Of a stretch of 64,000 nt of DNA, positions 2,661 to 59,037 are shown in pieces; within the stretch, counting starts at the first letter, position 1; every line of letters begins with the position of its first letter. A program made the translations under genes and the position numbers. Where the stretch lies: the NCBI GenBank assembly GCA_938085045.1, contig CALKGI010000018.1, forward strand, positions 1 to 64,000. The letters are read 5' to 3'. This DNA is from an uncultured Alteromonadaceae bacterium (GTDB lineage: Bacteria; Pseudomonadota; Gammaproteobacteria; Enterobacterales; Alteromonadaceae). The notes beneath the pieces were generated by a model. That model was not told the DNA's origin and made no database searches. It was given only the letters and a program-made list of their open reading frames with translations.

Positions 2661-4826
2661 CTAAAAATTATAGCTGAAAGTTGCCCCAAAACGGGCAGGT
2701 TCACCTAGTTGGGTATACGTCGTCGCTTCGTAGCCGTTACGTGGGTCGTTGCCGAAGAAAAAACCACGAACGCCGTAGTCTTCATCAAATACGTTGCGTC
2801 CCCACACGGTAATATCCCAATCATTACCCTGATAGCCCACAGCCATGTTAACCAAGTCAATCGATTCAGATTTAGAGTCGTGGCTCATTGAGTAATAAAA
2901 CTCGTCTTTGCCTTCGGCGTTAATGCGTACAAACCACTGTTCATCAAAGGTGTAAACGCCGCCGATATTGTATTGATACTCAGGGGCATGGGCTTGATTA
3001 CGACCGCTTTTATCGGTGCCATCTTGGGCCACAAAATCTTTAACTTCTGATTTCAATACACCGAAACTGGCAAACAGTTGCAAAGCGCTGTTTACATCAT
3101 AACTGAGTTCGGTCTCTAAACCATAATTGTTGCCACTGGCACCGTTCTCAATATAACCAGTAAAGATAGGCGTGCTGCCATCAGTGCTAGTTTCAGTGAC
3201 ATGACCTTTGAGTTGAATATCTTCACGATGAGAGTAGAACAAGCTCATACGAACAACAAGGTTGCCCTCATCATTAGCGCCTTTCACACCAAACTCAATA
3301 TTATGCAAAACCTCTGGAGAAAACGATTTTCTTTTAGTCAAAAAATCACTTGTTGCATCTTGACCATCAACAATGGCTTTGCCAATGGCTTCACCGTTAA
3401 CACCACCGGCTTTGTAACCGCGAGAAAGCGTGGAATAAAGCATGGTTTGGTCATTGACTTGATAACTAACATCAAACTTGCCGCCCCACATTGTGTCGGT
3501 TATAGAATCTACTGTATCGACACTGTCAAGGTAGTCAGAGGTGCGCTGTTCTGCTCGCAAACCAGCGGTAATGGTGACTTGGTCATCCACTTGCCAGTCT
3601 CGTTGGCCATAGAAGGCAACATTTACCGTGTCTAAAGTGCTGTCGAACAAAGGTGTAAAGCCATAAACTGCCATACGTTCTAATGCAACTTTCTTATCTT
3701 GTCGATAAAAGCCTGCGACCCAGTTAGATTCGTTACCGGGTTTTGCCGTTGCTCTTAAGTCCACAGTGTTAGCGTTATGGTCGCGAAAGTAATGGTCAGT
3801 TGAAGTATATCCCCAATCGTGAAAGCCCTCAAAGGCCCAATCTTCATCGTAACCATAAGCCATATTCGAGCTGTTGACGCTGGTTTGTAAGCTTACATCT
3901 GCGCTAACAAAGGCGGTGTAATGTCCGGTGACACTTAAGGCTTTGGTTCTTTGAGTGTCAAAACCCGGTTGGTCTGACAGGGTTTCGCGAGTATTGTCTA
4001 AAGAAAAGGCATCATAACCGTTGTCGGCGTCAAAAAAGTGGGTGGCAACATCGACTGTTAAATCTTCTGTTGCAGTCCAGTTCAAATTCAAACGACCACC
4101 AAACTCTTCGATATTGTTGGTATCATCGCGGTTCAAGTGGGTATTTCGAATATAACCATCGCTCGATAGTTTTTGCACGGCCATACGGTAATTTAAATTG
4201 TCGGTAATGGCCATACCATGCGCCACGCCAACTTGGCGGCTGTTGTAATTGCCGTACGACAACTGAACCTTGCCACTTTGCTCGCCGTTTGCTTGCGCGC
4301 CTCTTAAATTGACCATGCCAGCCATGGCGTTAGCGCCAAAACGAGTGCCTTGTGGTCCACGAAAAATCTCAACCTGACTGATATCAAACAAAGTCGCCGC
4401 AGTGCCAATGCCGCTGTAGTCAATACCATCAATGGCGATACCAACTGAAGGGTTAACAGCATCAACAAACTCACTACGCTCACCTATACCGCGCACCTGA
4501 AAATGCCGAGCGCGTGAAGCACCCGATGAAAAGTTGACATTAACCGAAGTATTTAACACATCTTCAAGATGCTGAGCATTGCGTTGACGCATTACGTCGC
4601 TGGTGATCACCGCGACACTTGCTGGTGTTTTTTGTAGGTTTTGTTGCTTGAAATCGCCAGAAACCGTAATGACTTCAATGGCTTCATTTTTGCTGGTTGT
4701 GTCAATTGTGTCAATTGCGGCAATTGTGTCATCGGCATGTACAGGCGCAATGGCACTTAAAATAGACAGGGTTAACAGAGATAATTTGGTGTTCATCGGG
4801 CGTCCGTTGGATAACGTTAATAACAA
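2661..4826 (-). CDS. TonB-dependent outer-membrane receptor, thiamine-regulated
   Basis: 721 aa with a signal peptide, plug and barrel, and a C-terminal …FGATFSYNF ending in Phe; sits immediately downstream of a minus-strand TPP riboswitch. Confidence 0.85.
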   Translation of the reverse strand: MLLTLSNGRPMNTKLSLLTLSILSAIAPVHADDTIAAIDTIDTTSKNEAIEVITVSGDFKQQNLQKTPASVAVITSDVMRQRNAQHLEDVLNTSVNVNFSSGASRARHFQVRGIGERSEFVDAVNPSVGIAIDGIDYSGIGTAATLFDISQVEIFRGPQGTRFGANAMAGMVNLRGAQANGEQSGKVQLSYGNYNSRQVGVAHGMAITDNLNYRMAVQKLSSDGYIRNTHLNRDDTNNIEEFGGRLNLNWTATEDLTVDVATHFFDADNGYDAFSLDNTRETLSDQPGFDTQRTKALSVTGHYTAFVSADVSLQTSVNSSNMAYGYDEDWAFEGFHDWGYTSTDHYFRDHNANTVDLRATAKPGNESNWVAGFYRQDKKVALERMAVYGFTPLFDSTLDTVNVAFYGQRDWQVDDQVTITAGLRAEQRTSDYLDSVDTVDSITDTMWGGKFDVSYQVNDQTMLYSTLSRGYKAGGVNGEAIGKAIVDGQDATSDFLTKRKSFSPEVLHNIEFGVKGANDEGNLVVRMSLFYSHREDIQLKGHVTETSTDGSTPIFTGYIENGASGNNYGLETELSYDVNSALQLFASFGVLKSEVKDFVAQDGTDKSGRNQAHAPEYQYNIGGVYTFDEQWFVRINAEGKDEFYYSMSHDSKSESIDLVNMAVGYQGNDWDITVWGRNVFDEDYGVRGFFFGNDPRNGYEATTYTQLGEPARFGATFSYNF

Positions 4827-4871
4827 TCCAGATAGTGGGGCAATAGAAAAAGTAACAACGCAGTGAATACG

Positions 4872-4972
4872 AATTTACCATTCCTACGCCGGTATTATCC
4901 GGATCAGGTTTTAGGGTTCGGCGATAGCGCCATCTCAGCCAATAATTCAGCACCCCTTGGAATGGGTGAATA
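4872..4972 (-). ncRNA. TPP (THI-box) riboswitch controlling the TonB-receptor operon
   Basis: Minus-strand read: …GGGGTGCTGAATTATTGGCTGAGATGGCG…AACCTGATCCGGATAATACCGGCGTAGGAATGG, matching the conserved CUGAGA and ACCUGAUCYGGAUAAUGCCAGCGUAGGGA cores. Confidence 0.85.
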
Positions 4973-5106
4973 GTATAGTAGATTGGTGGTGAATGAAACT
5001 GCTGTAAAAGCATGATTTGATATTACATAGTACGAAATGCCGATAGACCTACCCAAACACAAAATATATTGCCATCACCCCCAATTCAGTAATACACTGC
5101 CCGCCA

Positions 5107-5203
5107 CTTGTCGGAGTGCCTAACTTGTTATCAAGAAAGGCTGAGACCGCTTTATGCGGGATCCGTGGAACCTGACCAGGTTAAAACCTGCGTAGGAAAC
5201 AAG
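5107..5203 (+). ncRNA. TPP (THI-box) riboswitch upstream of thiC
   Basis: …GGAGTGCCTAACTTG…GGCTGAGACCGC…GGAACCTGACCAGGTTAAAACCTGCGTAGGAAACAAG; the P1 stem cttgt/acaag closes it, and an AGGAG Shine-Dalgarno lies about 10 nt before the thiC ATG. Confidence 0.85.
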
Positions 5204-5311
5204 CTATCGAAAAAAGGCACCTGTAAAATAGGTGTACTTGTCGCTTCTCGTTCCACACCTCTCCTGCAAGCTCTCTGTATCACATACAATTATTGCATCA
5301 GGAGCAAATAG

Positions 5312-15358: not shown

Positions 15359-15433
15359 TTTGCTAGTAGCTCAACGGTAGAGCAGTGGACGAATAATCCA
15401 TTTGTTGTGGGTTCGATTCCCACCAGCAAACCA
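15359..15433 (+). tRNA. tRNA-like sequence, probably a degenerate or pseudo tRNA (Lys/Ile-like scaffold)
   Basis: Canonical D-arm (TAGCTCAACGGTAGAGC) and T-arm (GTGGGTTCGATTCCCAC), but the acceptor stem has a mismatch or register problem and the anticodon loop CGAATAA has G33 and A34. Confidence 0.45.
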
Positions 15434-18512: not shown

Positions 18513-19259
18513 TTGGTCAATAATGCGCAAAACTTTTCAGCAAACTCAGTACCCATGTCTGCCTTCGAATATCAGCTACAACGCTCTATGCGCCGCAAAA
18601 CTTTGTCTATTGTCATTCGTCGTGGCGAGGTTAAAGTGTTGGCACCTGTGTTTTTGTCTAAAAATACCATCGCTGAATTTATTGTCGCCAAAACCCCGTG
18701 GATTCTACAAAAGCTACAAACCCAAAAAGCATGGGTTGAACAAAATGATCAGGAGCAAAAACAGTTTGTTGAAGGTGAAACATTTTTGTATTTGGGCGAA
18801 TCGTATCCTTTGTCGGTCGGGGCGGCCAGTAAAAGCGAAGTGACATTACACAACGGTTATTTCATCGTTAATGTGTCAAACCGAGTGAAACCCGAAAACC
18901 GTGCAAATCACATCAAAGGGCTGATGCAAGACTGGTATAAACAGCAATTAAGTGATTATTTAGATCACCAAATTGCGCATTTTGCCGATGTGATAGGTGT
19001 GGTTCATACGGGTGTGAATGTACGTTCATATAAAAGACGATGGGGTTCGTGCAGTTCTAAAGGTCAGTTGAGCTTTAATTTTTTATTGATGATGGCACCG
19101 AGCTGGGTCATTGATTATGTGATTGTGCACGAGTTGTGTCATTTGACCCATATGAACCATTCGCCGCGCTTTTGGGCTATGGTTCAGCAGTTTTATCCCC
19201 GCCATAAAGAGGCTAAGGCTTGGCTTAAGGTCGAGGGTGGGAACCTGCGGCTGGAGTGA
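18513..19259 (+). CDS. YgjP/DUF45 (SprT-like) zinc metallopeptidase-fold protein
   Basis: WGSCSS…VHELCHLTHMNHSPRFW (HExxH) motif; the true start may be the ATG at 18555. Confidence 0.75.
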   Translation: MVNNAQNFSANSVPMSAFEYQLQRSMRRKTLSIVIRRGEVKVLAPVFLSKNTIAEFIVAKTPWILQKLQTQKAWVEQNDQEQKQFVEGETFLYLGESYPLSVGAASKSEVTLHNGYFIVNVSNRVKPENRANHIKGLMQDWYKQQLSDYLDHQIAHFADVIGVVHTGVNVRSYKRRWGSCSSKGQLSFNFLLMMAPSWVIDYVIVHELCHLTHMNHSPRFWAMVQQFYPRHKEAKAWLKVEGGNLRLE

Positions 19260-19295
19260 GGCTGGTGGCTGGTGGCTTGTTACTTTAAAAGATCT

Positions 19296-19340
19296 CACAC
19301 GGAGACGCGTGACCCCGTGTCCCCGTGTGAAGCTTTTGAC
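19296..19340. repeat. Solo right-end fragment of the CCGTG-repeat MITE family (see 22779-23432)
   Basis: cacacggagacgcgtgaccccgtgtccccgtgtgaagcttttgac shares the …CCGTGTGAAGCTTTTGAC terminus with the other copies. Confidence 0.55.
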
Positions 19341-19360
19341 CTAACTCCTAACTCCTAACC

Positions 19361-20707
19361 CTAAATAATATTCTTAATCACAGTATCAGCCTTGGTGCCC
19401 TTGATGGTGCGCAGTAGTTTGCGTACAGGTCTTGGGTAGTCCTTCATGGTCTCTAATTCTTTAAAGTTAGCAATCCTTTTGGTGTGCACCAAAATTGTCT
19501 CAAGTTCGTTATCAAACGCGGGTTTGAGGTTTTGCTGGTGGTCATCTATCAGCAGGCCATTTTCTAAATCCAATCGCCAAGCCCTAGGGTTTAAATTGTT
19601 GCCGGTGATCAAGTGTAATTGGTCATCAGAGCTGATGCCCTTGAGGTGAAAACTGTTGTTTTCATGATTCCACAAGTGAATATTCAGCAGGCCACTATTG
19701 ACAAATTTTTGATTGCGCGCAATAAAACGGCGTAAGTTAGATTCGTAAATATACGGCAAACCGCCAATGGTGGTGAACGGTTGGTCGGGTGGAATATAAA
19801 AATCGTTGGCGGTTTTGTCACCAATAACTATGGTGATTTGACGGCCTTTTTTCAGCAGCTTTCTGACTTCTCTGGCAAGTACTGGCGGCAGGTTAAAATA
19901 GGGGGTAAGCATCACCAGCTTTTGCTCACAAGCGCGGATCATCGAACGGATGGTTTTATTCAATTCATTGCGCCTAAAACCCAAACCGACCAAAGGCGTA
20001 ATGGCCACACCACTATGGGCTATAGGCATGTTTTTAACATCGTAAGCGGCGCTGACCAAATTACGCTTGAGGCGCAACACGTCTTTTTTCATTTCTTTAA
20101 CTGAAGGCACGTTTTCGTCGGTTAACAACTTAACCGCCGCTGACTCAACAAAATACTGTTGTAAAAAGTCAACCATGGCATTGGCTAAATCGCCTTGCTT
20201 AATCACATGGTAACGGTCATATCGGTAGCGGTTTTCTTGATGCAAGTAAATGTCGTTGATGCTGGCGCCACTGAATAACACCGTTTGGTCAAATACAAAA
20301 CCTTTTAAATGCAAAACACCTAACAGTTCTTTAGATTTTACGGGCACGCCATAAATGTCTATGCCGTGCTCATATTGATTTTGACATTCGCGGTAAAAAC
20401 CGGCATTGCCGGGATGTTTTTCTTCGCCAATCAAACCGCGCTGGGCTCGATGAAAATCAACGAATATTTTGATGTCCATTGTCGGCGTGGCTTGTTTGGC
20501 CTTGTACAGGGCGTGAAGTATTTCTTGTCCGGCGGCATCATCTTGCAAATATAAAGCTGAAATATAAATTCGCTGGGTTGCTGTGGCAATTAACGACAGT
20601 AATTTGCTCTTGAAAGCCACGGCAGTGGTTAAAATCTCAAAATCTTCGGTAGGCAGCGCCAATTTAGGCAAGGTCTGCAAGTACAGTTGGTCTTTTTTCT
20701 TACGCAT
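19361..20707 (-). CDS. pssA: CDP-diacylglycerol--serine O-phosphatidyltransferase (PLD-type PssA)
   Basis: Strong collinear similarity to E. coli PssA (…ALYLQDD…VDFHRAQRG…HLKGF…GASINDIYLHQ…YRYDRYH… and a second HxK motif HLKGISSDD). Start taken at the internal Met (MRKKKDQ…). Confidence 0.85.
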   Translation of the reverse strand: MRKKKDQLYLQTLPKLALPTEDFEILTTAVAFKSKLLSLIATATQRIYISALYLQDDAAGQEILHALYKAKQATPTMDIKIFVDFHRAQRGLIGEEKHPGNAGFYRECQNQYEHGIDIYGVPVKSKELLGVLHLKGFVFDQTVLFSGASINDIYLHQENRYRYDRYHVIKQGDLANAMVDFLQQYFVESAAVKLLTDENVPSVKEMKKDVLRLKRNLVSAAYDVKNMPIAHSGVAITPLVGLGFRRNELNKTIRSMIRACEQKLVMLTPYFNLPPVLAREVRKLLKKGRQITIVIGDKTANDFYIPPDQPFTTIGGLPYIYESNLRRFIARNQKFVNSGLLNIHLWNHENNSFHLKGISSDDQLHLITGNNLNPRAWRLDLENGLLIDDHQQNLKPAFDNELETILVHTKRIANFKELETMKDYPRPVRKLLRTIKGTKADTVIKNII

Positions 20708-21799: not shown

Positions 21800-22759
21800 G
21801 TGCCCCAGTCGTTGATCAAAAGAATACTGCTTGTAGTGGTTATATTGATTGGTTGTGCAGTCACTAGTGTACTTATTATCTATAACAGTTGGCGAGCTGA
21901 TTTTACGGCGCAGCTAACATCAGGCAGTGAATTGGCACAAACCGATAAAGGCGTGATTGAATATGCCAGTATCGGTGACAAGGCGACTGAAAAAAATCAC
22001 CTGTTTATACTTCATGATACCCCCGGCGGTTACGACAGTGGCCTCATTCTCTCACAGTGGTTAGAATTAGACGAACAAACCCATATTATAGTCCCTTCGC
22101 GACCCGGATTTCTTAGAACGCCAATCGAGACAGGTGCCACGCCGTACGACGCTGCGCAGGCAATGGTTGCCCTTATGGATAAGTTTGGTATTGAGCGCAC
22201 CACTGTATTGGGCTGGGCTGGCGGAGCGGCAACAGCACTTGAAATGGCCCAACAGTATCCTTCGCGCGTTGAAGGTTTGGTGCTGCTTTCGCCTCGAGTT
22301 ATGCTAGATGAGCAATACCCAGCCAAATCTACCGCATTTGATGCATCAACAGTTAAAGTATCAAGCGATTATTGGGGGAGTGGTTTGAACTCTTTTGTGG
22401 CAAGTTACTTCTTGTCTGGTGATTTTCCAAAGGGAGTTAACAATTTGGCGTTAGCACAGCAGCGGTTTGAACAATTGAACGTCACTAATCAACTACCCAG
22501 TAGCCGTGCCATAGGCACCGCAAATGACCACTGGCAATTTGCAAAATTGGCCAAAGCACCGCAATATAAAATCACCATGCCCACCTTGATTATCCACAGC
22601 CCGCTCGACGAAACTGTGAGTTTTGAACACGCACAATATTTGAGTAAAACCATCAAAAAGGCTCAGCTGTATCGGGTAGAAAACGAATCTCATTTAAGCA
22701 CCATGAATGCACAAGCCGTTGGCCGATTTCATACTTTTTTAGAGCGCTTGCGTAAGTGA
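21800..22759 (+). CDS. Alpha/beta-hydrolase fold protein with N-terminal TM anchor
   Basis: GWAGG nucleophile-elbow-like motif, and His/Asp in the C-terminal part. Confidence 0.6.
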   Translation: MPQSLIKRILLVVVILIGCAVTSVLIIYNSWRADFTAQLTSGSELAQTDKGVIEYASIGDKATEKNHLFILHDTPGGYDSGLILSQWLELDEQTHIIVPSRPGFLRTPIETGATPYDAAQAMVALMDKFGIERTTVLGWAGGAATALEMAQQYPSRVEGLVLLSPRVMLDEQYPAKSTAFDASTVKVSSDYWGSGLNSFVASYFLSGDFPKGVNNLALAQQRFEQLNVTNQLPSSRAIGTANDHWQFAKLAKAPQYKITMPTLIIHSPLDETVSFEHAQYLSKTIKKAQLYRVENESHLSTMNAQAVGRFHTFLERLRK

Positions 22760-22778: not shown

Positions 22779-23432
22779 TTAAAAGCTCACACGGAGGCGC
22801 GGTGGCGCAGAGGTTCACGGAGAAAGAAAAAAGACAGAAAGAACCACTTGATGGGCATTTTATTGCGAATGTTGGCGCAAGTTTCTCAATTTATAAAAAG
22901 TAATGTGTTGGCTACGGTTGATGAATAAGGAAAGATAATTCATTAATTAAGGAAAGTAACTATGTTGCATGGAAGTGAATTAACAGGAACGATTATTGGC
23001 GCGGCAATTGAAGTTCATCGCCACCTAGGCCCCGGACTTTTAGAATCTGTATACGAACAATGCCTAATTCAAGAGCTGTTAATTAAAGGATTGAATGTCA
23101 CCAGTCAACAAGAGTTGCCGATTATTTACAAGGGGAATCGACTGGCGAGTCACTATCGAATTGACTTGATGATTAATCAGCAAATCATCATTGAATTAAA
23201 GGCTGTAGCGGAATTAACGCCTGTCCATAAAGCACAACTGTTAACTTACCTGAAATTGTCTAATACCAAGCTAGGCTTACTACTAAACTTCAACGTCCCT
23301 GTAATGAAAGATGGGATCGTTAGGATGATAAACAAACGATTACTATAGTGTTACTGCCTTAAACTAATTTTTGTGTTTTCTCCGTGAACCTCCGTGTCAC
23401 CGTGCCTCCGTGTGAAGCTTTTGACTTTGTCC
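22779..23432. mobile_element. MITE-like element bounded by about 45-bp imperfect terminal inverted repeats, carrying one cargo gene
   Basis: Left end aaaagctcacacggaggcgcggtggcgcagaggttcacggagaaag; right end cttttctccgtgaacctccgtgtcaccgtgcctccgtgtgaagcttttgac, which is its reverse complement. Related copies lie at 19296-19340 and 58779-59008. Confidence 0.7.
22962..23348 (+). CDS. GxxExxY-family protein (PD-(D/E)XK nuclease-like fold), cargo of the MITE
   Basis: 128 aa; …GPGLLESVYEQCL… motif typical of the GxxExxY family. Confidence 0.65.
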   Translation: MLHGSELTGTIIGAAIEVHRHLGPGLLESVYEQCLIQELLIKGLNVTSQQELPIIYKGNRLASHYRIDLMINQQIIIELKAVAELTPVHKAQLLTYLKLSNTKLGLLLNFNVPVMKDGIVRMINKRLL

Positions 23433-23444
23433 CTAGGGGGGCGA

Positions 23445-24275
23445 TTAACCCACCAATTCAACCTCATAAGATCCGAATTTACGGATATTTATCACCCCAT
23501 TATCAAAAATCAAATACTGACCTTTTATGCCCAGTAATGTGCCTTCAACTACTGGGTTCTTATCAAAGTTGAATGACGTGATTTTTGTGGGGTACTGCAA
23601 TACGGGGTATTTAATGGTGGTGACCTCTTCATCCAAACGGGTAATTGCGTCTTCACCATATTGCAATTTAAGGTCAGCTAAGCGGTCTTCTATTTGTGGC
23701 ACTAATTCATTGGCTCGGGTTTTGAGGTCAATGTCATCGTTCACGCCCTTAAGCAATGCGCGCCAATTGGTTTTATCACCAATAAACTGAGCCAAAGCCG
23801 TTTCAACCAACCCAGATTGCAAGCGTGTGCTCACGGCAAAAATAGGCATTGCCTGTGTTGCACCTTGATCAATCCAACGGGTTGGCGTTTGAGTGTGACG
23901 AGTTATCCCCACCTTTAAAGCAGAGGTATTAGACAAATACACGAAATGTTTAATCATGCAGTTTGTCTCGCCCCATTGCGGTTCGCGACACGTACCTTTG
24001 TCAAAATGGCAGGTTTCGGGTTTAAGAATGCACATGTCGCAACTGGCCAGTTTTGACATGCAAACATAACAATGGCCTTGCGAATAACTCTTCTTGGTTT
24101 TTTTACCGCAGTTTGAACATAATATCCGGCCGCTGTGCACCAGTTTTACGGTGGTTTCGAGTAGTGAGTTTAGCGGTACCAATTCGTCGCCGATGGGCAA
24201 TGAGTAATCAACCGTATTGGCTTGTCCGTCGATGGTTTTTAGTTGGCTGTGGAGCTTTTTCAGTGTACCTTGCAT
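23445..24275 (-). CDS. DUF2797-like protein with Cys-rich zinc-ribbon segment
   Basis: CSNCGKK…CYVCMSKLASCDMCILKPETCHFDKGTC cluster; no other assignable domain. Confidence 0.5.
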   Translation of the reverse strand: MQGTLKKLHSQLKTIDGQANTVDYSLPIGDELVPLNSLLETTVKLVHSGRILCSNCGKKTKKSYSQGHCYVCMSKLASCDMCILKPETCHFDKGTCREPQWGETNCMIKHFVYLSNTSALKVGITRHTQTPTRWIDQGATQAMPIFAVSTRLQSGLVETALAQFIGDKTNWRALLKGVNDDIDLKTRANELVPQIEDRLADLKLQYGEDAITRLDEEVTTIKYPVLQYPTKITSFNFDKNPVVEGTLLGIKGQYLIFDNGVINIRKFGSYEVELVG

Positions 24276-57168: not shown

Positions 57169-58725
57169 ATGTTTAAGTTACTTACTCAATCGAGCACATC
57201 CATAAAAAATGACGTGTTGTCCGGTTTAACTGTTGCCCTAGCTCTGGTACCCGAAGCGGTTGCTTTTGCCTTTGTCGCTGGTGTTGATCCACTGGTTGGC
57301 TTGTACGCTGCCTTTATGATTGGCCTAATTACCTCTATCTTGGGTGGTCGCCCGGGCATGATCTCTGGTGCTACCGGTGCTTTGGCCGTTGTGATGGTCA
57401 CCTTAGTTGCCCAACATGGCGTGCAATACTTGTTTGCCACCGTTATTTTAATGGGGATTTTACAAGTGCTGGCGGGGGTGTTTAAACTCGGCAAATTTAT
57501 CCGAATTGTGCCCCATCCTGTGATGTTCGGATTTGTAAATGGCTTAGCCATCGTGATATTCCTTGCCCAATTAGGGCAATTTAAAGTGCCCGGAGCCGAT
57601 GGTGCACTGGTTTGGATGAGCGGTGTTGAGCTTTACGTCATGCTGGGTTTAGTTGGGTTGACTATGGCTATTATTCATTTCTTGCCAAAATTGACTACCG
57701 CCGTACCGTCTTCTTTGGTGGCTATTGGCGTGGTTACCCTGATTTCTTACTTCTCTGGTTTAGAAACCCGAACAGTCATCGATTTTGTTAAAACCATGAC
57801 AGGCGACGCCAACGCAACTATCGCCGGTGGTTTGCCAACTTTTGCTATTCCAAGCGTACCATTTGATTTTGAAATGCTGCGAATAATCTTCCCATACGCC
57901 ATTGTATTGGCCGCTATTGGTTTGATTGAATCGTTGCTGACATTGACTTTGATTGACGAAATCACCGAAACCCGTGGTCGTGGTAACCGCGAATGTGTTG
58001 GTCAAGGCGTTGCTAACGTAGCGACAGGTTTCTTCGGCGGTATGGGTGGTTGTGCGATGATTGGTCAAAGCATGATTAACATCAACTCTGGTGGTCGTGG
58101 TCGTTTGTCGGGCATTACCGCAGCTTTAACTTTGTTGGCGTTCATATTGTTTGCCTCGGCCTTGATTGAAATCATTCCATTGGCAGCATTGGTTGGTGTG
58201 ATGTTTATGGTCGTGTTGGGCACCTTCGAATGGTCAAGCCTGCGTATCATCAAGAAGATACCTAAAGCCGATGCTTTTGTTATTTTCTTAGTATCTGGCG
58301 TGACAGTAATGACCGATTTGGCCATTGCGGTTGTGGTTGGCGTTATCGTATCTGCCTTGGTATTTGCTTGGGACCACGCCAAACATGTTTATGCAACTAA
58401 GCGTGTTGATGAAAATGGTTCGAAAATTTACGAATTACATGGTCCATTATTCTTTGGTTCAGTCAGTCACTTTTTGGATATTTTCGACACCAAGAATGAC
58501 CCTAAAGATGTCATCATCGAATTCAAATACAGCCGAGTTGCAGACCATTCGGCGATTGAAGCGATTGATACTTTGGCCGACAGATACACCGCTCAAGGCA
58601 AAACCTTGCACCTGCGTCATTTGAGTGAAGACTGCGTTAAGTTGTTGCACAAGGCGGGGAATATGGTTGAAGTTAACTTTACAGAAGACCCGCATTACCG
58701 AGTTGCATCTGACGAACTGGCTTAA
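57169..58725 (+). CDS. SulP-family anion permease with C-terminal STAS domain
   Basis: Multi-TM SulP signature region and C-terminal STAS domain; start taken at MFKLLTQSS…. Confidence 0.8.
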
Positions 58726-58778
58726 CCTTTGTTTAATCCCCCGGCGCTGGCGCTGGGGGATTAAAAGATTAAAAGATT

Positions 58779-59008
58779 AAAAGCTTCACACACAGACGCG
58801 GAGACACGGAGGTTCACGGAGAAAGACAAAAAGGTAAGACAAACAAACTTAAATAACTTTAAAAAAGTATTGGCTACAAAAACAACATGTAACTAGGTTT
58901 TCCATCTTTTAAAGCTTTTCCTCCGTGAACCTCCGTGTCTCGGCAATTGCTCCTGCATTGCCCTACCATAATACGTCCCTGTATTTGTCCGTGTGAAATC
59001 CCTTGACC
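58779..59008. mobile_element. Cargo-less copy of the CCGTG-repeat MITE, about 230 bp
   Basis: Left end aaaagcttcacacacagacgcggagacacggaggttcacggagaaag; right end cttttcctccgtgaacctccgtgtctcggc…gtccgtgtgaaatcccttgac; no ORF inside. Confidence 0.65.
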
Positions 59009-59037
59009 TTGACCTTGGCCTTAAAGGCCGAAGGCCG

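Follow-up and report, generated by a model that had tools for sequence, protein, structure and literature searches.

Repetitive extragenic palindromic (REP) sequences are defined as palindromes of 20-50 nt preceded by a conserved GTAG, and, as likened here, they are dispersed without a gene as singlets, inverted doublets and tandem clusters, mostly after gene ends (PMC8266576). REPs, their hairpin-forming doublets (REPINs) and the REP-associated tyrosine transposases (RAYTs), together termed the REPtron, are the closest functional analogue of the element described in this report. The element lies at positions 22781-23422 of a 64,000-nt stretch of DNA (the window; positions 1 to 64,000 of contig CALKGI010000018.1 from an uncultured Alteromonadaceae bacterium) and consists of a small GxxExxY gene between two long inverted repeats, or arms. 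Judged from sequence, it belongs, as a copy that carries the gene, to a class of palindromic repeat elements that is widespread and apparently undescribed and for which GxxExxY appears to be the signature gene and the best candidate for an enzyme acting in trans. Like the REPtron, it pairs one small nuclease-type gene with a short repeat: inverted copies of the repeat stand on both sides of the gene, many more are dispersed without it, and the gene copy appears stable and vertically inherited (the window compared with the orthologous locus L084). Unlike the REPtron, it encodes a Cas4/RecB-like PD-(D/E)XK hydrolase and not an HUH Y1 (IS200/IS605-like) enzyme, its arms are tandem CRCRRAG units and not palindromes, its terminus is TTCACC with no GTAG, several divergent GxxExxY copies are possible per genome, and the motif and protein are common to bacterial phyla and archaea. 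Membership of the REPtron itself was rejected on three of these grounds, namely the missing GTAG, the non-palindromic units and the non-HUH enzyme. The best explanation is a repeat-plus-cognate-nuclease system, comparable to REP/RAYT or to a miniature inverted-repeat transposable element (MITE) with its transposase, with a different enzyme and a different repeat, and we put the probability of this reading at roughly 0.55.

The association of gene and arms across prokaryotes carries this reading. Scanning species-representative genomes with the window protein yielded 80 loci at 51-75% identity, distributed among Acidobacteriota, Chloroflexota, Planctomycetota, Chlamydiota, Verrucomicrobiota, Bacteroidota, Cyanobacteria, Myxococcota, Desulfobacterota, Gemmatimonadota, Actinomycetota and beta- and gamma-Proteobacteria, with Methanothrix and Methanophagaceae among the archaea. 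At a local-alignment score of at least 40 (shuffle maxima were 19-33), flanking inverted repeats were found at 48 of 85 GxxExxY genes (scan loci and window) drawn from at least 10 phyla plus Methanothrix, and one of 396 random windows from the same loci reached that score. Viewed from the arms, 51 of the 56 complementary pairs with loops longer than 200 nt in 1.9 Mb of fetched loci hold GxxExxY, and these loops are typically 378-520 nt, that is, the gene and little else. The density of arrays with at least three units is 1.89 per kb up to 300 nt from the gene and 0.058 per kb in the remaining 1.03 Mb, a 32-fold difference, and a shuffled control gave a single such array in 1.1 Mb. In 29 of 50 loci, no more than 15 nt separate the approximate gene end from the start of the right arm, and the left arm finishes no more than 20 nt ahead of the approximate gene start in 20 of 50. 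The commonest layout is '>>> gene <<<', and a minority of loci have complete hairpins on both sides of the gene. It is because of the 48/85 versus 1/396 association and the 51 of 56 long loops that we regard GxxExxY as the probable signature gene and candidate trans-acting enzyme; the element in its characteristic form carries the gene, rather than being a MITE with picked-up cargo.

The first-pass annotation of the window had taken the locus for a gene-carrying variant of a non-autonomous, MITE-like element. A repeated palindromic element with gene-bearing and gene-less copies is indeed present, whereas the same two sets of counts leave little room for the gene as a passenger. On the passenger model, an ordinary MITE or terminal-inverted-repeat (TIR) transposon would be moved by a transposase encoded elsewhere, and GxxExxY would be cargo of unrelated function. 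The sharply defined ends of the inverted repeats and the existence of short gene-less derivatives (one of which, copy C below, keeps part of the leader) suit this model, as do the other genes that occasionally occupy the loop, namely a DUF433/DUF5615 pair (L012) and, in L007, an unassigned open reading frame (ORF); insertions that are nested or clustered (L052, the L001 array) and subterminal units that resemble the multiple binding sites in some transposon ends are further likenesses to TIR transposons. However, the gene-arm association is near-exclusive across phyla, and the sole encoded protein is a hydrolytic nuclease of 125 aa, not a DDE, serine or tyrosine transposase. None of the 56 long-loop pairs encloses a transposase (51 hold GxxExxY and one DUF433/DUF5615), and a transposase or recombinase gene flanked by matching ends was found in none of the fetched loci (1.9 Mb). 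Target-site duplications, looked for at 49 aligned termini, were not found, and identical proteins at multiple sites were not seen. In addition, conservation of both the protein and the arm motif from bacteria to archaea would be hard to explain if they were functionally unrelated. Thus, with neither a target-site duplication nor a cognate transposase, the element is not a MITE in the strict sense, and we consider the passenger model very improbable.

The arms parse as tandem unit arrays rather than as arbitrary palindromes, and one design is common to all of them: 2-4 tandem units of 8-10 nt, most commonly three per arm, with the core CRCRRAG (C-R-C-N-R-A-G in the survey of arms). The commonest units are CACAGAG (127), CACGGAG (81), CGCAGAG (68), CACAAAG (30) and CGCAAAG (19), spaced by 8-9 nt in 202 of 249 cases, and the unit variant within one element tends to match on both arms. 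The outer termini are conserved in 49 aligned elements as TTCACC on the left and GGTGAA on the right, and just beyond them 35-37 of the 49 have TT on the left and 39-41 have AA on the right, bases that continue the inverted repeat. The same arrays recur at loci unrelated to that of the window: in an Algicola metagenome-assembled genome (MAG; L002), a 75%-identical gene between a major facilitator superfamily transporter gene and a peptidase M17 gene is bracketed by a 62-nt, 90% inverted repeat built of CACGGAG units, and in an Alteromonadaceae MAG (L001 and L004, the same contig) another 75%-identical homologue lies in a repeat array full of these units. Several divergent GxxExxY copies can share one genome (L051, L064, L074).

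Some individual loci depart from the common layout. The gene of the Alteromonadaceae MAG sits within a ~2.5-kb array (L001 1450-3900, equivalent to L004 8450-10900) of ~250-nt tandem units, each comprising heptad hairpins plus a second long palindrome (TTGCTTGTAGAGAACAAAGCGCTCCAG... / ...CATTGGAGCGCTTCGTTCTTT). L012 (1848-3028) has a toxin-antitoxin-like DUF433 and DUF5615 pair in a 1.1-kb loop with the GxxExxY gene just outside; L007 (17847-18829) has a heptad hairpin holding a 210-aa ORF without a Pfam match; L050 (2587-3148) has a Uma2 nuclease gene abutting a four-unit arm; and nested or clustered insertions are seen in L052 (2860-3040). In L221 (2501-2929), the GxxExxY gene lies between the type II secretion system (T2SS) E and F genes of one operon, with a called start that overlaps the upstream stop codon, and therefore the elements also occupy intra-operon junctions.

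The window element follows the general design with four units per arm, and its parts are as follows.

22781-22825, + strand: left arm, with the outer module AAAAGCT, four tandem units (CACGGAGG, CGCGGTGG, CGCAGAGG, TTCACGGAGA) and then AAG
22790-22822, + strand: left-arm units, parsed as '>>>>'
22826-22961, + strand: leader within the loop, with an A-rich stretch, a conserved block (TGTTGGCTACGGTTGATGAA.AAGGAAAGA) and the ribosome-binding region
22962-23348, + strand: GxxExxY gene, 128 aa, with PF13366 and TIGR04256 profile matches
23377-23422, no strand assigned: right arm, with complementary units (CTCCGTGAA, CCTCCGTG, TCACCGTG, CCTCCGTGTGA) and then the outer module AGCTTTT(GAC)
23380-23412, no strand assigned: right-arm units, parsed as '<<<<'

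Smith-Waterman local alignment of the 450 nt upstream of the gene with the reverse-complemented 350 nt downstream defined these arms with a score of 65 against a shuffle maximum of 25, and a repeat search of the window returned inverted arms of 46 nt, 85% complementary, at 22787-22832 and 23370-23415. The first-pass annotation had therefore placed its ~45-bp inverted repeats correctly, and its 128-aa GxxExxY gene between them is confirmed by both profiles above their cut-offs; coordinates, length and gene were right, and only the arm strings that it quoted are slightly inexact (GTTTTCTCCGTG is the sequence of the right arm, where it gave CTTTTCTCCGTG). The 676-nt stretch is predicted to fold, when single-stranded, into one ~55-bp stem with the gene in the loop (free energy, dG, -203 kcal/mol; z = -4.8). 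The left arm can be aligned with its counterparts in copy C and in the orthologous element of L084, and the leader block is shared with L084 and in part with the copy C loop; a sigma-70-like promoter was sought inside the loop and leader, and none was detected. The lineage of the window has the terminus TCACAC plus an additional AAAAGC/GCTTTT module, versus the usual TTCACC. Its two neighbours are convergent, an alpha/beta-hydrolase gene (21800-22759, + strand) and a DUF2797 gene (23445-24275, - strand), and the element occupies the interval between their stop codons.

The encoded protein is a full-length member of TIGR04256 (GxxExxY; E 1.1e-45, 154.7 bits, cut-off 35), and its sole Pfam match is PF13366 (E 8.6e-44, 149.1 bits, cut-off 22, residues 6-121). 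Its motif residues are G25-L-L-E28-S-V-Y31, D68, E78-L-K80 and Q92-x-x-x-Y96, and E28, Y31, E32, D68, E78, K80, Q92, Y96, N109-F110-N111 and R121 are invariant across 35 diverse aligned homologues, as is G25 of the GxxExxY motif. The confident AlphaFold model (predicted local distance difference test, pLDDT, 94.5) has a restriction-endonuclease-like, Cas4-like core. On this model, the protein is a minimal RecB/Cas4-type PD-(D/E)XK nuclease core with the predicted D-ExK-QxxxY site intact, and it looks like an active nuclease. It differs from Cas4 in being half the size (full-size Cas4 has ~200 aa), in its marginal sequence matches and in carrying a single cysteine, so that it is without the 4-Cys iron-sulfur cluster of Cas4; no cas genes or CRISPR array adjoin it, its neighbours being the alpha/beta-hydrolase and DUF2797 genes with no direct-repeat array around the gene. 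Size, cysteine count and neighbours led us to reject Cas4 proper. Proteins of 270-295 aa with two tandem GxxExxY domains also exist (P0361-P0367 and others), which suggests that the single-domain protein may work as a dimer.

The family is large, with 23,198 clusters at 50% identity matching at E <= 0.001. The window protein has no match in the Protein Data Bank by sequence at E <= 1 and none in PHROGs, and PADLOC gave marginal matches only, to Cas4 (E = 0.025) and to the candidate defence protein PDC-M36A. Viral contigs yielded 2 loci in 2.9 million, and of 72,556 plasmid records 8 carry the gene, most of them megaplasmids; the gene is thus too rare on either vector for its spread across phyla to be explained in this way. 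Some database GxxExxY entries (P0020, P0054, P0062) begin with N-terminal extensions such as HHRGTEDTE or HRGTENTE, which correspond to the left arm translated by gene callers (CAC CAC AGA GGC ACA GAG GAC ACA GAG); as read from these codons, such extensions are an annotation artefact that marks the arms.

The first-pass annotation had also noticed that the same ends recur in the window without the gene, and this observation is borne out. The arm 19-mer TTCTCCGTGAACCTCCGTG has four occurrences in the window at up to 3 mismatches, with 0 expected, and the outer end CCTCCGTGTGAAGCTTTTGA is found again at 19320. The gene-less copies and their surroundings are as follows.

19285-19339, no strand assigned: copy A, a gene-less, compact 55-nt hairpin (AAAAGATCTCACACGGAGACGCG / loop / CCCGTGTCCCCGTGTGAAGCTTTTGA; dG -31 kcal/mol, z -5.3)
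58779-59007, no strand assigned: copy C, gene-less, 229 nt (dG -76.5 kcal/mol, z -6.4)
58779-58826: left arm of copy C, followed by a 95-nt AT-rich loop
58915-58941: right inner arm of copy C, followed by an insert of ~45 nt
58987-59007: diverged right outer end of copy C
19260-19278, 19340-19362, 58762-58785 and 59001-59018: short tandem repeats of 5-8 nt, ~3 copies each (ggctggt, cctaact, gattaaaa, ccttga), abutting the outer ends of the gene-less hairpins

There are thus three copies in the 64 kb, copies A (55 nt) and C (229 nt) being non-coding and the third protein-coding. The inner arms of copy C match at 58805-58823 and 58919-58937, and because these inner arms and part of the 5' leader (AAAAAGTA..TTGGCTAC) are shared with the gene-bearing copy, copy C looks like a derivative that lost the gene. 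Copy A is flanked by convergent genes ending at 19259 (+) and 19361 (-), and copy C by convergent genes ending at 58725 (+) and 59038 (-), so that all three window copies are positioned between convergent genes. Elsewhere in the window, Rfam identified two divergent thiamine pyrophosphate riboswitches ~135 nt apart (4864-4967, - strand; 5102-5215, + strand) and a tRNA gene (15360-15430, + strand).

The position of these copies bears on a quite different account, in which the hairpins are bidirectional terminators, mRNA stabilisers or RNase III sites, like REPs and the stems of 23S rRNA intervening sequences, and GxxExxY has a cellular role (repair or defence) with inverted repeats that merely regulate its expression. 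The three window copies all have convergent genes on either side, copy A is flagged as terminator-like on the - strand, and the AAAAGC/GCTTTT module gives a stem followed by a T-tract in both directions. Similarly, no promoter was detected in the loop, the last left unit (GGAGG or AGAGG) often stands 0-20 nt before the start codon, where fold-back would mask the ribosome-binding site, and the weak PADLOC matches to Cas4 and a candidate defence protein are in keeping with a cellular role. Yet the general form of the element has TT at its 5' side and AA at its 3' side, the reverse of an intrinsic terminator, and among the arm mismatches G-U pairs are not favoured on the sense strand (65 versus 78, p = 0.32). 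The elements are also found inside co-directional operons (T2SS E/F in L221 and radA/FAD in L211), and a regulatory hairpin needs no single motif conserved from Proteobacteria to Methanothrix. We therefore regard a purely transcriptional or RNA-level role as improbable. ORF-bearing 23S rRNA intervening sequences resemble the element in having a small ORF in the loop of a long inverted-repeat stem, but they belong to rRNA and carry a different ORF family; Rfam found no rRNA in the window and an rRNA signature was present in none of 215 loci, on which grounds this class was rejected. The proposal of the first-pass annotation that similar proteins are known to ride in intervening sequences could not be substantiated in the searchable literature.

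Comparison of orthologous sites shows that close relatives differ in holding the gene or the element. In L084, whose DUF2797 protein is 96% identical to that of the window, the orthologous element is present with a GxxExxY protein 92% identical, and its right arm is shorter than that of the window by exactly one 8-nt unit; the unit is therefore the module of change. In L086, the 94% relative, the same intergenic space holds a ~190-nt gene-less hairpin of opposite polarity and of a different, Algicola-like subfamily. A relative at 82% (L087 and L088) has neither the hydrolase gene nor the element at the site of the window element, and no hairpin was found in L088 at the site orthologous to copy A. 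A second example comes from Bacteroides finegoldii (L211, RefSeq), where a 435-nt element fills exactly the interval from the radA stop codon to the start codon of the next gene, the coding sequence alone being annotated. In L212, whose RadA is 98% identical to that of B. finegoldii, an unrelated 79-nt spacer (3869-3948) stands in place of the element, and in a 92% relative (L214) the radA/FAD site has a spacer of 13 nt only (3869-3881). The L212 spacer contains two CACTGATAAAT repeats and the L214 spacer, TTCACCATAAGCT, starts like the element terminus; for both, a footprint, a target or coincidence are all possible. The overall picture is of repeats that are gained and lost over the time in which species diverge, in the manner of REPs, rather than of a bursting insertion sequence.

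Presence and absence of a gene at the same site among close relatives is also what homing endonuclease genes display, and homing into hairpins is the strongest rival of a repeat-plus-nuclease system. PD-(D/E)XK homing endonucleases are known, for example I-Ssp6803I. On this view, the heptad hairpins pre-exist as host or selfish repeats, a free-standing GxxExxY endonuclease gene cuts the tip of a solo hairpin, and recombinational repair copies the gene into the loop with the arms as homology, so that the nuclease spreads itself and not the repeats. The element shares with homing endonuclease genes a small nuclease gene embedded in what may be its own recognition sequence, and a spread that would need host recombination. 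The gene lies exactly where the loop of solo hairpins lies, with almost nothing else in it (378-520 nt), arms of 30-50 bp could act as short homology, and solo loops as short as 2-16 nt would be hard to obtain by repeated precise deletion of a gene. The same site is, moreover, gene-bearing in L084 and gene-less in L086. However, because the L086 element belongs to another subfamily and has the opposite polarity, it is not an empty allele of that in L084; in both pairs (L211 versus L212, with 98% RadA, and L084 versus L086) the alternative alleles carry unrelated sequence, with no clean empty site. Copy C retains part of the leader, which points to gene loss rather than to an empty target, and gene-less copies far outnumber filled ones (0 of 120 metagenome loci among the matches listed, see below), which is unexpected for an efficient homing gene. 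Unlike known homing endonuclease genes, there is no intron or intein, and the putative target is a multi-copy repeat of which most copies are unfilled. Homing would also leave unexplained the spread of the hairpins themselves and the conservation of their termini across phyla. We accordingly judge homing unlikely, if less so than the two accounts above.

Arms without the gene are found well beyond the window, and on the reading adopted here such short hairpins and single arms are dispersed in intergenic DNA of the same genomes. In L011, L015, L027, L044 and L052, short hairpins stand alone near the gene. Metagenomes scanned with an 18-nt arm motif gave at least 120 stretches, mostly from soil and freshwater, about one-third of which look like chance matches. 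Among the matches listed, clear three-unit arms number 58. A complementary partner stands at a distance of 2-131 nt from 20 of these, and the other 38 lack one within 3 kb. Not one of the 120 loci (740 kb) encodes a GxxExxY protein, and compared with hairpins and single arms the gene-bearing form is therefore rare. Many single arms from soil metagenomes (L094, L097, L108, L114, L131, L142, L192 and others) share a ~40-nt motif, AAAGC(G/T)TTAACCACAGAGG(G/A)CACAGAGGTTCACGGAGGAA, with no complementary partner within 3 kb, and where the gene context is clear most of them follow a same-strand ORF at a distance of 0-70 nt, ORF calling in these GC-rich contigs being crude and noisy.

For the repeat-plus-nuclease system, the anatomy, the association of gene and arms across phyla, the surplus of gene-less copies, the variation among relatives at orthologous sites and the intact active site are all observed in the data, and from these we infer both the action of the nuclease on the arms and the mode by which copies spread. 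The nuclease, probably as a dimer, would recognise and cut the heptad arrays, whether these are duplex or form extruded or single-stranded hairpins, and cutting would spread or maintain the gene-bearing copy together with the gene-less copies in trans. Strand transfer is not an expected activity of a PD-(D/E)XK hydrolase, and copying would therefore probably rely on repair or recombination by the host. The arms may have a secondary role: in read-through transcripts, the purine-rich left arm would pair with the right arm and so limit expression of the nuclease. The Shine-Dalgarno sequence is often supplied by the last left unit (in L052, the GAGG of the last unit stands 2 nt ahead of the ATG), and this pairing would then mask it.

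Several results weigh against such a system. About 40% of the 85 GxxExxY genes are without a strong flanking repeat at the chosen threshold, and the mostly partnerless single arms of the metagenome sample are not explained by a simple hairpin-element model. A precise empty site was sought at the Bacteroides radA locus and not recovered, the alleles differing by replacement and not by clean insertion; likewise, the 49 aligned termini yielded no target-site duplication, and none is visible at the window copy. Identical GxxExxY proteins (P0020, P0024) on 6-7 contigs always have the same neighbours, and being confined to one gene context they give no sign of recent movement to new sites; the rarity of the family on plasmids and viral contigs likewise speaks against recent, active transposition. 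Covariation between protein sequence and heptad variant, sought in 52 pairs, gave a maximum mutual information below the permutation 95% level, and the arm mismatches noted above (no excess of G-U on the sense strand) weaken the account too. Binding or cutting of the arms by the protein is something that we infer, and we know of no case in which a hydrolytic nuclease of 125 aa suffices for transposition. The fullest form of the proposal, that GxxExxY and CRCRRAG arrays make up unrecognised self-propagating palindromic elements across prokaryotes, in which the Cas4-like hydrolase drives cut-and-copy of both the gene-bearing and the gene-less form via host repair, is put forward tentatively, at odds clearly below even.

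The link of GxxExxY with heptad arrays across phyla is apparently undescribed in the searchable open-access literature. Papers naming GxxExxY, PF13366 or TIGR04256 in that literature nowhere discuss the repeats, functional work was not found there, and the single survey that lists GxxExxY/PF13366 gives its function as unknown; the arm strings have no relevant occurrence in the same literature, and a description may exist elsewhere. No Rfam family matches the window element at E <= 10, and none reaches the gathering score in 20 related loci. The arms are thus currently unannotated, and a family without an assigned function gains a specific candidate DNA substrate and a genomic role. If the nuclease maintains the repeats, an association of the REP/RAYT type would have evolved at least two times with unrelated enzymes, and in far more phyla than those for which RAYTs are usually discussed. 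There could also be technical interest in a Cas4-like nuclease that is both compact and sequence-specific. Should the tentative cut-and-copy proposal be true, these elements would represent a second independent invention of the REPIN/RAYT lifestyle, shared by bacterial phyla and archaea.

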